A DNA stretch of 64,000 nt from Octopus vulgaris. Its lineage: Eukaryota. Where the stretch lies: positions 129,890,001-129,954,000 of the forward strand of contig OX597819.1 of assembly GCA_951406725.2 (NCBI GenBank). The letters run 5' to 3'. Position 1 is the stretch's first letter. Every line of letters begins with the position of its first letter. This document shows positions 10,303 through 57,865 of this stretch, one piece after another. Made by a program: the position numbers and the translations under genes. The notes beneath the pieces are model-generated. The model was not told the DNA's origin and made no database searches. It saw only the letters and a list, made by a program, of their open reading frames with translations.

Positions 10303-10672
10303 CGGTTTCAAATTATAGCACAAGGCCAGCAATCTCGGTGATGTGGTAACTCGATTATAACGATCCAAATGTCTAAGTGGTACTTATTCTATCGACCCCG
10401 AAAGGATAAAAGGCAAAGTCGACCTCGGCGGAATTTGAACTCAGAAGATAAAGAAGGACAAAATACCTGTTTCTTTATTACCCACAAGGGACTAAACACA
10501 AAGAGGACAAACAAGGACTGACAAACGGATTAAGTCGATTACATCGACCCCAGTGCGTAACTGGTACTTATTTGATCGACCCCGAAAGGATGAAAGGCAA
10601 AATCGACTTCGGCGGAATCTGTACTCAGAACGTAACGGCAGACGAAATACCGCTAAGCATTTCGCCCGGCCA
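10303..10672 (-). mobile_element. SINE family B copy joined to an older B-variant copy at the AAATAC site
   Basis: Two tandem cores ATCGACCCCGAAAGGATRAAAGGCAAA. Junction AAATAC|CTGTTTCTTT at about 10466. Confidence 0.85.
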
Positions 10673-11047
10673 ATTCGCCAACTTAAGTTTTGAATTAATA
10701 ATGTTTCATGTATATATTTATGCGAGCAAATACGCATGCATGCATACATACATACATACATAATAATACATACATACATACATACATACATACATACATA
10801 CATACATACATACATACATACATACATACATACATACATGTTTTTATATGCATGACAAGGCAGAAAATTGGTATCATCTACAAGATTCGAACATCATATC
10901 TTCCGTAAACTATGTAGTTGTTATCAAACTACTACATGAAGGTGATAGTACAAGCTCAAAATTTCAAGTTAGAACCCTTAAGCTAACAAGCTCGTACCCC
11001 TCGTTTCAGAGGCTTGTCAACAAAGATATATATATGTGTATATATAT

Positions 11048-11235
11048 CGCCATGATAGGTCGTTAGCCACTACACACATTTTTTCTCTCCTTGTTTGTTT
11101 CTGTGTCCCTTTCTGTAGAAGAGCGTAGGCTCGAAACGTAAAAGACTTTTTCTATTCCTGAGCGTTATACTAATTCATCTGTTTGTTTTGTACACCACCT
11201 GTCTTCGTCTTTTGTTTTTTTCGTAAACTCTCTCT
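11048..11235 (+). mobile_element. Penelope-like terminal-repeat remnant in (TA)n, with hammerhead-variant motif at 11109-11144
   Basis: CTTT CTGTAGA A GAGC gtag GCTC GAAA CG T A AAAG. Homologous copies at 30637-30790 (+) and 36888-37050 (-); all three have their 3' end on (TA)n. Confidence 0.65.
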
Positions 11236-12248
11236 ATATATATATAATATCAAGATATGATATTATATATATCTAATACGGAAGACGAAAACAACGTAAC
11301 ATTGTCTACAGGAATTGAACTTCTGATCTACTGTAAATCATATGACCGTACTACACACACACACACACACACACACACACACACACACACACACACACAC
11401 ACAAACACGAACATGCATACACACACACGCACACATATATGTATATGTATATATACTCTTATCGAAACGGTAATATTGTTTTAAAAGAACCACCTCTGAG
11501 CTTCCTAGTAAATTCCAGAAAACAATTACAACATATATGATCGTATATAAACAGACTTTCGAACGGGAGGTGTTGAGAGGGTGGGATAATTCAAGACAAA
11601 TATACAGAGGAAGAAATCAAAACAGCGAAGGAAACCGAGACACAATACAATCAACAGAAAACGTTGTCTTTATCTCTTTAAATCTGCATAAAATTGCTTC
11701 CATTTCCGCCTCTTTTCGCCATAACGAGGTCATAACCACCATGATAGCAGGAGGCAGACGATAGGGAAGAGACGATAGGGAACGCTCGTATCTGTGTCTG
11801 TGTGCATGTACGTTGTGTATGTGTGTATGTGTGTGTGTGTGTGTGTGCGTGTGTGTGTATACACGTAATGAGCGCGCATATGTGTACGTGTAATTGTGAT
11901 TTGGTATGTGCGCACACGTTCTGAATTACTAGCGTCTGTTCAAATCGTATTTTGGTACATGTGTGTGTGTGTGCTTATGCGATATAAGTATATGTATAAG
12001 TACTTGTATGCATGTTTACTTGTGCATTCGTCTATATGTATACATGTGTGTGTAAATGTATTATATATATATATATATATATATATATATATATATATAT
12101 ATATATATATATAAAAAATACGTTTTATATATATATATACATTTTATATATATTTATCATATATATATATATATATATATGAATGTATTTATGTATGTAT
12201 ATATACACACACACACATATATATATGCATGTGTGTATATATATATAT

Positions 12249-12690
12249 AGGCGTGGCTGTGTGATAAGAAGCTTGCTTTTCAACCACATGGTTCCGGTTT
12301 CAGTCCCACTGCGTGGCACCTTGTGTTCGAGACGCCGACCTTGTGAGTGGATTTGGCTGATGGAAATTGACTAAAGCCCGTATTGTATATGTTTCTGTGT
12401 GTGTGTGTGTGTGTGTGTGTGTGTGTGTGTGTGTGTGTGTGTTTGTGTGTGTGTGTGTGTGTGTGTATGTGTGTGTTTATGTCTGTGTTTGTCCTCTACC
12501 ACCGCTTGACAAACGTTGTTGGTGTGTTTACGTTCCCGTAACTAATCAGTTCGGCAAAAAGGGCCTACAGAATAAGTATTCGATTTTACAAACAATAAGT
12601 CTTTGGGTAGATTTCTTCGACTAAAATCCTTAAATGTGGTGCACCAGTATGGACCCAGCCAAATGACTGACACAAGTAAAAGATAAAAGA
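12249..12690 (+). mobile_element. tRNA-derived SINE, family C (diverged, internal (TG)n)
   Basis: Head GGCGTGGCTGTGTG...TTTCAGTCCC. Tail GTGGTGCACCAGTATGG...AAATGACTGA...TAAAAGA. Confidence 0.85.
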
Positions 12691-13609
12691 TACACACCCA
12701 CACACACATGTTTGTGTATGAGATCGTGGTTTCGATTCCTAGACTAGCTGCACGTAGTGTTGTTTAGCAAAACGCTTTATTTCACGTTGCTCCGGTCCAC
12801 ACACACACACACACACACACACACACACACACATATATATATATATATATGACAATGGGTTTTCTGAAAAATTTTCCACTTTAATAATTGGATGTTTATC
12901 AGTTTATAAAAATGTCACCTCATTAAAATGACACTTTTATATTATCAGAAAAATTATCAGAAATACCATTTCTGTTCATTTTTTCATATATATATATATA
13001 TATATATATATATATACGGGGATACCTATATGTATATAGTATACACATAATTGTACGTACAAATTAGACAGTTGATGGTGGATTCGTTTTAATAATTGAG
13101 AAGTCCCGCGAACAAAATTCTAGCGCCCTGTCTAGGCAAGTGATGATCGCGAAGATGATAAAATATCAATCATACAAGCAGAAAAACAACTGTATAAATG
13201 GAAGGCAAAGAAAAAAGAAAGAAAAGAAGAGTTTGAGAGATTAATATGAATGGAATAAATAGTATGGAATAAATAAGGACGAAACCATTGCCAACAACTC
13301 GAAACACAACAACAATAACATTCCTAATTTGCAAACATTGTTGATCAAAAGAAGTGACATTACTTGGACTAAGTCAAAGAAAAAGAAAACGATTCCATGA
13401 GAGATGTGAAAATAGGCCTTGCTCAATGAATTCTGAGGAAAGTCGAAAAAGAAGATGATTATACGTCTGAGTTTTCAAAGGTTAAAATCTTTTTAACAAT
13501 AATACAACCATCTCATGAACCACTACATTTGCTGGCTACAATAACGCCACCAACAAGTGCACCAATGTAGTCAGCTACAACAGAAGGAGCAGCAGCAGAA
13601 CCAACAGCA

Positions 13610-13962
13610 GTGGAGGCGCAATGGCCCAATGGTTAGGGCAGCGGACTCGCGGTCGGAGGATCGCGGTTTCGATTCCCAGACCGGGCGCTGTGTGTGTTTA
13701 TTGAGCGAAAACACCTAAAGCTCCACGCGGCTCCGGCAGGGGGTGGTGGCGATCCCTGTTGTACTCTTTCGTCCCAACTTTCTCTCACTCTTTCTTCCTG
13801 TTTCTTGTCCCCGACTTCCTACGCAACCACTGAGCCTGGATGCGCATTCATCCATCCGTCGAAGCTCTCGGTGTCGGTGGTTGACCTGCTTTCTCTTCAG
13901 CGGGTCTTACGAATAGCAAAGGACCACGTTTCGGACTTCTCCAACGAAGACCACTTCGCTCA
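13610..13962 (+). mobile_element. SINE family A
   Basis: Same head and body as the 9516 copy. Confidence 0.92.
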
Positions 13963-55860: not shown

Positions 55861-55865
55861 ATGAA

Positions 55866-56222
55866 AAAAAGGCATTGGAGGGGCGATGCATACCCTGCGC
55901 GCAATCAAGGATAAAATAAAATTAATTTAATGAATATATTCTCAGACAAATTCATATTTCAACAAAATGACATGAATTCTTTCCCATTCTTATCGTTTAT
56001 GCCTATGTAACCAAAGCAAAGAAACATTTCGATCCACCCGTTCGCCAGTTTTGAAGATAATCAAACCAAAATAATGAGTTCGAGCCACTCACCCAATGAG
56101 TATTTCTGCCAAATTTCATGAAAATCCGTTCAGCTGTTTTCCAGTAGTTTCGCAAACACACAGACAAACAGACAAAGACGAGCGACTACAATACCCTGTT
56201 TTCGCTTACACACGCTAGGTAA
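55866..56222. mobile_element. Helentron-associated (HINE/DINE-1-like) non-autonomous element
   Basis: CCAAATTTCATGAAAATCCG core, CAGA microsatellite, then a terminal ATACC..hairpin..GGTAAT arrangement. Confidence 0.55.
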
Positions 56223-56881
56223 TAATAATAATAACAATAACAACAACAACAATGCTTAATCAACAGGAAAACAGATGTCAGCCATATTGGGTATGGTGCA
56301 ATGCCTGTAACAGGGTGCGAACATACGATCTCTTGTCTTGTTAACCAGGTCCTTGTTATCTTTATTGTTGTTGGAGTTTGTAAAATAGACATCAGTAACA
56401 TAAAATATTACTGGTGCCCATTTTATATACTCCGAGGAGTTGTCGACTTTATCAATTTATTAGCTAAGAAAGTAGATGAAATTATAATTGCTACACATCA
56501 TCCTACTGGATTCTGAGAGCTGATGCCTTTCCCGGTATTGCCTACATCACCAGTTGTCTGTCTCTCACCTTTGGATAATTCAGGAAAAAACAATCCTGTT
56601 GATTAGTCGCAGGTCTGTAAGTAATTAAGTAACAGTCCTAGCTGGTGACAGGATAAGGAGGCTGCTGTGTGTGCCACTGGATGTCTGACTCTTGTGATGG
56701 TGTTATTCCACGCTTTCCATGGCGCTGGACTTAATATGCCTGAGGTCGACTTCAAGTTTTCCTCAATTTGTTTCCGTCGTGTCTGTAAAGGATAGGGTGG
56801 AAGTATGATAAAGGCTTTCTGGCTGCGATCATCTCATCTTTTCTACGTTAATGGTGAACAACAACAACAACAACAACAACA

Positions 56882-57259
56882 GTGGAGGCGCAATGGCCCA
56901 GTGGTTAGGGCAGCGGACTCGCTGTCGGAGGATCTCGGTTTCGATTCCCAGACCGGGCGTTGTGTGTGTTTATTGAGCGAAAACACCTAAAGCTCCACGA
57001 GGTTCCGGCAGGGGGTGGTGGCGACCCCTGTTGTACTCTTTCGGCCCCAACTTTCTCTCACTCTTTCTTCCTGTTTCTTGTCCTCGACTTCCTACGCAAC
57101 CGCTGAGCCTGGATGCGCATTCATCCATCCGTCGATGCTTTCGGTGTCGGAGGTTGAGCTGCTTTCTCTTCTGCGGGTCTTACGAATAGCAAAGGACCAC
57201 GTTTCGGACTTCTCCCATCTTGCGAACTCTGGGACGAAGACCGTTCGCTCAACAACAAC
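56882..57259 (+). mobile_element. SINE family A inserted in (CAA)n
   Basis: Full consensus, with CAACAACAAC on both sides. Confidence 0.93.
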
Positions 57260-57269
57260 GATTCTTTTT

Positions 57270-57865
57270 TATCATAGGCACCAAGCTAGCAATTTTGGGG
57301 CAGTGGGCTAGTCGATTAATCGATCTCAGTATTTGACTCCTATTTATTTTATCTACTCCTGAAAGGATAAAAAGTAAAGTTAACATCAGTAATATGTGAA
57401 CTCAGAACGTTATGAACCAGAACAAATACTTATTTCTTTATTACCCACAAGGGGCTAAACACAGAGGAGACAAACAAGGACAGACAAACGGATTAAGTCG
57501 ATTATATCGACCCCAGTGCGTAACTGATACTTATTTAATCGACCCCGAAAGGATGAAAGACAAAGTTTACCTCGGCGGAATTTGAACTCAGAACGTAACG
57601 GCAGACGAAATACCTATTTCTTTATTACCCACAAGGGGCTAAACACAGAGGAGACAAACAAGGACAGACAAACGGATTAAGTCGATTATATCGACCCCAG
57701 TGCGTAACTGGTATTTATTTAATCGACCCCGAAAAGATGAAAGGCAAAGTTGACCTCGGCAGAATTTGAACTCAGAACGTAACGGCAGACGAAATACGGC
57801 TACGCATTTCGCCCGGCGTGCTAACGTTTCTGCCAGCTCGCCGCCTTATACCTGAACAAATACCA
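57270..57865 (-). mobile_element. SINE B dimer (57430-57845) inserted into an old B-variant at the AAATAC site
   Basis: Junctions at 57429 and 57613 (184-bp spacing). Duplication GAACAAATAC at 57420-57429 and 57854-57863. Confidence 0.88.

Follow-up and report, generated by a model that had tools for sequence, protein, structure and literature searches.

Why should a short interspersed element (SINE) end, time and again, at one particular base inside the head of its own family? The question is raised by a 64,000-nt window of the Octopus vulgaris genome (G000:C6:129890001-129954000; genome size 2.80 Gb), by which we mean the whole stretch analysed, where many simple repeats are accompanied by about 20 copies of one SINE-like family. 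Its members have a single head and core (positions 1-165, numbered on the window copy at 57615-57848) and one of three tails: B, the older V1 or the older V2. About four in ten B copies end at one exact spot inside another family copy, position 51 of the head, and this self-targeting pattern is real, genome-wide and subfamily-specific.

The family and its junctions in the window

With a length of about 234 bp, no coding capacity, a dispersed distribution and a high copy number, B has the properties of a SINE. The non-CpG core divergence of its solo copies is 2.9%, compared with 7.0% for V2 and 12.0% for V1, and target-site duplications (TSDs) of variable length, 9-23 bp, accompany 58 of the 123 chains that end in unique DNA, as against 1 of 60 controls. 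Motifs resembling A and B boxes were recognized in the head by eye; ARAGORN returned 0 tRNA genes, and no tRNA family is among the Rfam matches listed (150 of 302). The family presumably resembles the octopus SINEs, with OR1, OR2 and OK, or the CORE or Deu/Nin superfamily, as candidates. The head is predicted to fold into a hairpin with a 13-bp stem and a 4-base loop (calculated energies of -17.8 kcal/mol for RNA and -6.4 kcal/mol for DNA; in the window at approximately 22030..22064, minus strand), in which position 51 would be the first base of the 3′ arm, right after the loop. The small inverted repeat that a first-pass annotation of the window had pointed out at the junction stems from the likeness of the B end to the hairpin's 5′ arm.

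Twelve B 3′ ends lie in the window, 11 of them recovered by a fuzzy tail search and a diverged twelfth near 38252. Six, all on the minus strand and with their last B bases at 10468, 18466, 21677, 21861, 57431 and 57615, join a family copy, in every case at position 51, as the annotation had proposed in naming one fixed internal head site. At three of these junctions, the downstream copy has diverged two to four times more than the inner B copy. The first is a B copy with an internally deleted head (10468..10670, 6/115 core mismatches) followed by an older V1-tailed copy that runs from head position 51 to its own tail (10304..10467, 18/115), the whole 10304-10670 composite being enclosed, as judged by eye, by TSD-like flanks. 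At the next junction, a 5′-truncated inner B copy (18466..18623, 7/98) sits between the letter-identical copies of a 14-bp TSD that starts at the head site: the 5′ copy (18624..18637) has a shortened host head directly upstream, and the 3′ copy (18452-18465) opens the V1-tailed host remainder (18313..18465, 20/98). The third consists of one head with two B units (57431..57848, junction 57614/57615), which are mutual closest relatives within the window and 2.3% apart, followed by an old V1-like host remainder from the head site (57277..57430, 29/113 against 7/115 in the inner copy). A 10-bp TSD, again letter-identical (57854..57863 and 57420-57429), encloses this entire two-unit element; upstream of its 5′ copy lies a B-box fragment of the family and no normal host head. 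The remaining two junctions (21860/21861 and 21676/21677) connect one head with three 184-bp B units at 21493..22090, which are 3.9-5.5% apart over the last 128 bases. All these features are on the minus strand.

Rate, fixed position and choice of target

Exact-pattern counts give 74,852 B 3′ ends genome-wide, of which 45,786 are followed by GGTA and 21,780 (29%) run into the exact 10-base head site. In a sample of 160 stretches of 10 kb (90 arbitrary, and 70 on C1 picked for holding an exact B end), 254 B ends were read. Unique DNA follows 123 of them, whereas 129 run into another family member in the sense orientation and 2 in antisense. The sense joins are at position 51 in 111 cases and at position 18 in 8, and the 10 scored elsewhere are mostly position 51 with an indel. 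The arbitrary stretches taken by themselves yield 29 sense joins and 1 antisense join among 65 ends, 22 of the 29 being at position 51, 3 at 18 and 4 scored elsewhere. According to PMC4494074, a SINE is target-specific when more than 20% of its flanks are of one type; here, one type accounts for the 29% of exact ends and the 29/65 in arbitrary stretches.

Head sites are used 73-111 times as often as free genomic sites with the same 5-8 letters, with free sites counted in the arbitrary stretches and each chain counted once; by a hand estimate, the enrichment falls to about 45-70 once the heads already hit are returned to the pool. A rate far above chance, as the annotation had anticipated, is thus confirmed, and because same-letter sites are used so much less, the short microhomology to which it had ascribed that rate is insufficient on its own. 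An assembly artefact was rejected, the joint being present also in contigs of other runs. In the literature searched, mostly open-access main texts (supplementary repeat libraries may hold these composites), a SINE targeting its own head at a fixed base is not described. Separately, at two loci (L053, minus end 8189, and L081, plus end 2476), one and the same sequence, which belongs to another repeat and starts with GGTATT, comes after the B copy; this suggests a second favoured host.

The site that is hit depends on the tail. Of the joins made by T-tail ends, 1 is at position 18 and 115 are not; for CA-tail ends, 6 are at position 18 and 1 is not (p=1e-8, with 6 CG-tail joins left out). Correspondingly, the pre-insertion target of solo copies begins with GGTAT for T-tail elements (39 TSDs), in agreement with the annotation, and with AATAT or AGAAA for C-tail elements (19 TSDs). 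The annotation had further held that solo copies, and the RNA itself, may end in such letters. GGTA does come next after the solos ending at 21493, 23162 and 60803; at 60803, however, it lies within the TSD and is target-derived, and at 23162, GTA (all but the first G) is also in the 5′ TSD copy. Since these letters are present in 5′ TSD copies, they are not simply the end of the element but largely target sequence. Across the 58 TSDs, where letters at the junction and in the 5′ TSD copy disagree, the change is towards GGTAT 5 times and away from it 3 times (by eye), which speaks only weakly for letters supplied by the RNA. In most V2 composites, host-type bases are back within about 13 bases of the junction, and position 64 is host-type in 21 of 28; such an early return places the nick at or near position 51 rather than anywhere along a long pairing.

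Among relatives, no joint is seen in more contigs of organism B (at least 82) or organism E (at least 45) than the 184-base one, which is rare in those of organism C (at least 2), a more distant relative, these being contig counts and not copy numbers; the B tails of organism C mostly carry C-subfamily markers. This hints that joining at position 51 became widespread only once the lineage of organism C had split off. At one locus (L148), the CA-type host end near 5250 can be followed over 13-22 bases on contigs of organisms B, C and E, a match confined to the host and silent on the inner unit. Raw reads of run X21 (1,934 million letters) gave only 9 matches to window positions 21861-22090, few for so common a repeat and perhaps an effect of filtering.

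Independent insertion or duplication

Adjacent units would also arise by pure tandem duplication of solo copies or from a single dimeric master, and some of the data do point to duplication. Where three or more units form an array, they resemble one another more than random pairs do (4.8% apart, p=9e-10), the two window units at 57431 and 57615 are likewise close, and rare variants are common to neighbours in 14/34 pairs from long arrays and in 8/32 dimers, as compared with 4% at random. Moreover, inner units at three loci (L143, L175 and L176) begin with host-type bases. The uniformity of the arrays, their common rare variants and these host-type starts together imply that units are added by later duplication, and longer arrays do grow partly in this way. 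The proposal that self-targeting builds 184-bp arrays thus stands insofar as the joins seed the chains, whereas arrays of three or more units come in part from later duplication.

Most dimers, on the other hand, bear out the independent origin favoured in the annotation. Their partners do not lie significantly closer to each other than units paired at random (9.0% against 10.7%, p=0.16, 29 pairs), downstream hosts often carry other tails than the inner B, and among 56 neighbour pairs, T-tail precedes CA-tail 10 times and the reverse is never seen. In B-V2 composites, the V2 part exceeds the inner B in age (p=0.002, 29 pairs), and in 85 age-compared composites, 55 of them selected by the V2-type junction pattern, the V2 host is the older in 79 (5.4% vs 3.3%, p=3e-6), so the expected age difference between inner and host copies is found; the V2 parts have few variants in common. 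Set beside the nested TSDs and the two subfamily-specific sites, these unrelated partners and older hosts of other tail families refute duplication or a dimeric master as the general cause, which we regard as highly improbable, and leave duplication as a secondary process. A true dimeric master of the Alu-like kind does not fit, the right arms being older, the tails of several types and the common variants few. Rolling-circle copying of a 184-nt circle is not favoured as the main route either, given that a near-full head starts 67/84 solos and 85/93 chains.

Other arrangements of the family were met as well. Full-length B forms arrays with periods of 240 and 247 bp (L033-L040, G000:C8:110036075-110037931; and G000:C1:12697590-12698357), seemingly amplified between TSDs, and the L033-L040 array began as a nested head-site insertion. 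V2-tailed copies form head-to-tail chains in which the tail is joined just before the next head (L108, L140, L153 and L095), a second kind of self-targeting. In composites of swapped order (L002 plus strand 4770-5120, L127 minus strand near 2279, and L170), the first unit is host-type and the second starts B-type, as though a circle had integrated or two copies had crossed over within the core.

A LINE that shares the B tail

A long interspersed element (LINE) has about 45 terminal bases in common with the B tail. Its 542-aa fragment matches Pfam RVT_1 (8e-14) and zf-RVT (6e-8), and the element is a putative member of the Tx1 clade. This young LINE, with an open 542-aa reverse transcriptase fragment and (TATC)n flanks, lies at L068:3096-5170 and was also found at L018, L179, L131, L186 and L002. 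Repeats of the (TATC)n type lie directly beyond 9 of 11 of its ends, indicating target-specific insertion; the head site is not used by this LINE.

Composite structure and the origin of the joins

Three structural classes can be told apart. Class 1 is the nested form (host head, TSD at position 51, inner copy), represented in the window by the 18452 case. TSDs starting exactly at position 51 in nested arrangement occur at 4 of 83 new loci, and in addition at L150, L030 and L033 and in two cases in the window. The two TSDs that the annotation had cited are exact, and true TSDs starting at the site exist elsewhere, although they belong to a rare form: of 93 chains, 85 start with one near-full head, family head sequence being flagged upstream in only 4. 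Class 2 is seamless and keeps the host head; it comprises 8 of the 62 composites whose heads could be scored (out of 81), with host-type position 66 upstream of the junction and old heads. CpG decay in host-head composites reaches 28/44 against 66/301 (p=6e-8), and the CpG at position 58 has decayed alike on both sides in 7/20 against 2/35 (p=0.008). What looked like a gradient of age along the head goes back mostly to the 8 host-headed cases, non-CpG sites showing none; 34-62 T-tail solos served as the control. A minority of composites, those of classes 1 and 2, thus arose by insertion in place, and for most composites, such an origin is likely.

We give an even chance to the reading in which the joining of some 40% of B ends to position 51 is due to the machinery of a Tx1-type LINE, which nicks there and reverse-transcribes B into family copies. 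The Tx1-type machinery, its LINE having a 3′ tail in common with B, would nick position 51 of the head; the site would be picked mainly by a sequence-preferring enzyme, and pairing of read-through B RNA with the target may help in the choice. Tx1 elements are target-specific mainly via their endonuclease (PMC4494074). The 5′ end of the new copy would usually join by homology inside the host head, leaving a single head: that of the host in the minority of composites where it is seen, and that of B in most, where the B-type head is observed and would reflect overwriting. Where the 5′ join is non-homologous, the outcome would be the two-headed nested form with its TSD, which is rare and is found at the loci above, and unequal exchange between neighbouring units could lengthen some arrays, consistent with their common rare variants.

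A number of results weigh against this reading. Class 3, with one B-type head of B age, makes up 54 of the 62 composites; it agrees equally well with a host head that was overwritten as the 5′ end joined by homology and with assembly before insertion. The CpG at position 70 shows no concordance (7/27 vs 5/27), the residual head age gradient in class 3 is not significant (p=0.16), and TSD age (10.9% for composites, 9.6% for T solos and 13.3% for V2 solos, 13-27 TSDs each) does not separate the models. As many as 11 of 38 V2 copies in the arbitrary stretches follow a B end, a very high hit rate for in-place events. Among the 8,833 exact 3′ ends of the tail-sharing LINE genome-wide, a single match is followed by GGTAT, and it lies in a microsatellite. 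No LINE was found at position 51 among 631 anchored family copies, nor at 10 of the 264 loci matching a pattern designed for the purpose, only mutated B ends being seen; the search covered about 2 Mb of 2,800 Mb, so that a rare family could be missed.

In a second reading, which takes up the annotation's idea with longer pairing, pairing of RNA alone would pick the site, read-through RNA carrying the head-site sequence, pairing over many bases with a nicked family head and thereby renewing the loop. The target does follow the SINE's own tail type, in the joins as in the targets of solo copies; the tail-sharing LINE uses another target; organism C, in which most tail markers are of the C type, has few of the junctions that abound in organisms B and E; and RNA-target annealing is reported for SART1Bm and R1Bm (PMC7265360). 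We nevertheless consider this unlikely, since the host-type base at position 64 argues for a nick at or near 51, the RNA-templated junction letters are too nearly balanced, and two subfamilies served by two Tx1 enzymes would give the same pattern. Most one-head composites might, instead, have been put together at the RNA or cDNA level before being inserted whole, either through read-through of rare nested loci primed at the host tail or through a template jump or ligation that connects the 3′ end of B with a family RNA beginning at the hairpin loop. Such assembly would explain the preponderance of B-type, B-aged heads, a B-only head variant present in 12 of 54 class 3 composites and 0 of 32 V2 solos, outer TSDs that enclose the whole class 3 composite on a host-type target (by eye), the almost exclusive sense orientation of the joins and the location of the site at the first base after the predicted loop; young V2 solos also exist (10th percentile 1.5%). 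It is rather improbable in our view, because the host parts are older and have few variants in common, so that many different sources would be needed, and because the 8 old host heads and the nested TSD cases are left unexplained, several such cases in 93 chains comparing with about 1 expected from the motif (by hand).

We tentatively put forward as a possibility that a SINE subfamily, through its read-through RNA, turned the Tx1 enzyme that it borrows towards the promoter head of its own family, and that it now overwrites old heads with fresh ones at tens of thousands of loci, in a self-renewing loop that arose after organism C had split off and that makes satellite seeds of dispersed copies. 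The system provides, on a large scale and in nature, a SINE that inserts mainly into its own family and whose target choice differs between subfamilies and related species. It offers a testable setting for the roles of endonuclease and RNA pairing in LINE target choice, for homology-led 5′ joining and for the way in which dispersed repeats seed tandem repeats. Repeat annotation would misread such composites as separate families or dimeric masters.

Other elements of the window

The remaining B copies in the window are solos. A plus-strand copy at 22925..23162 has an 18-bp TSD; on the minus strand, there are a 5′-truncated copy with a diverged end (38252..38397), a copy with an 11-bp TSD (49538..49757), a member of the CA-tail subfamily with a 20-bp TSD on an AT-type target (52649..52882) and a copy with an 18-bp TSD that starts with target-derived GGTAT (60803..61037). 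Family copies also occur close together head to head, as at 22090/22098 in the window and at 5656/5819 in L148. Elsewhere in the window, a second abundant SINE-like family with an internal microsatellite is present at 19134-19532 and 46734-47152, a segment of its core resembling the B core. A 34-bp satellite of about 130 copies occupies positions 6-4437, its unit resembling (by eye) part of the family at 19134-19532, and a 52-bp satellite extends over 4471-6010.

Comparison with known systems

SINEU-3 and Tx1-Mar of crocodilians (PMC4494074) are similar to B in combining a SINE with a Tx1 partner, in having an abundant repeat as target that is entered at fixed spots, in their tandem insertions and in the use of different spots by different families. 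The target of SINEU is, however, a Mariner DNA transposon, whereas that of B is the head of its own family; SINEU elements have snRNA heads and a poly(A) tail, and their tandems keep a TSD between full copies, whereas B joins mostly leave one head. In a pair of the SINEU/Tx1-Mar kind, LINE and SINE would share the same target site; the tail-sharing LINE described here does not use position 51. The Xenopus elements (Tx1 in Tx1D, and Keno, Kibi and Koshi; PMC4494074) show a similar Tx1-type target specificity, Kibi and Koshi sitting in other microsatellites than the (TATC)n of our LINE; these elements are autonomous and have a foreign target, whereas here, the target is the passenger's own family.

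Among mollusc tRNA-type SINEs, the TSD1-(SINE)n-TSD1 arrays of Scapharca broughtonii (PMC11481361) likewise combine a full head with head-truncated units within one TSD. Those arrays involve about 3% of SINEs, their inner tails are truncated, and unequal recombination has been proposed for them; B units have a complete tail, the share of ends taking part is about 40%, and the hosts often belong to another tail family. SINE-derived satellites of squamates and the Dip/B1 multimers of jerboas (PMC10702118) are also tandem units derived from SINEs, with frequent multimers, but in the text at hand, no fixed site in the element's own head is described for them, and the jerboa multimers consist of full-length copies. 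In SART1Bm and R1Bm (PMC7265360), short pairing between RNA and target aids accurate priming at a site-specific nick, a likeness to the pairing we suggest; these are autonomous insect LINEs with telomere and rDNA targets, for which the effect has been demonstrated in assays, whereas in B, pairing is inferred. The closest cases to B are SINEU with Tx1-Mar, together with the one-head arrays of the clam.

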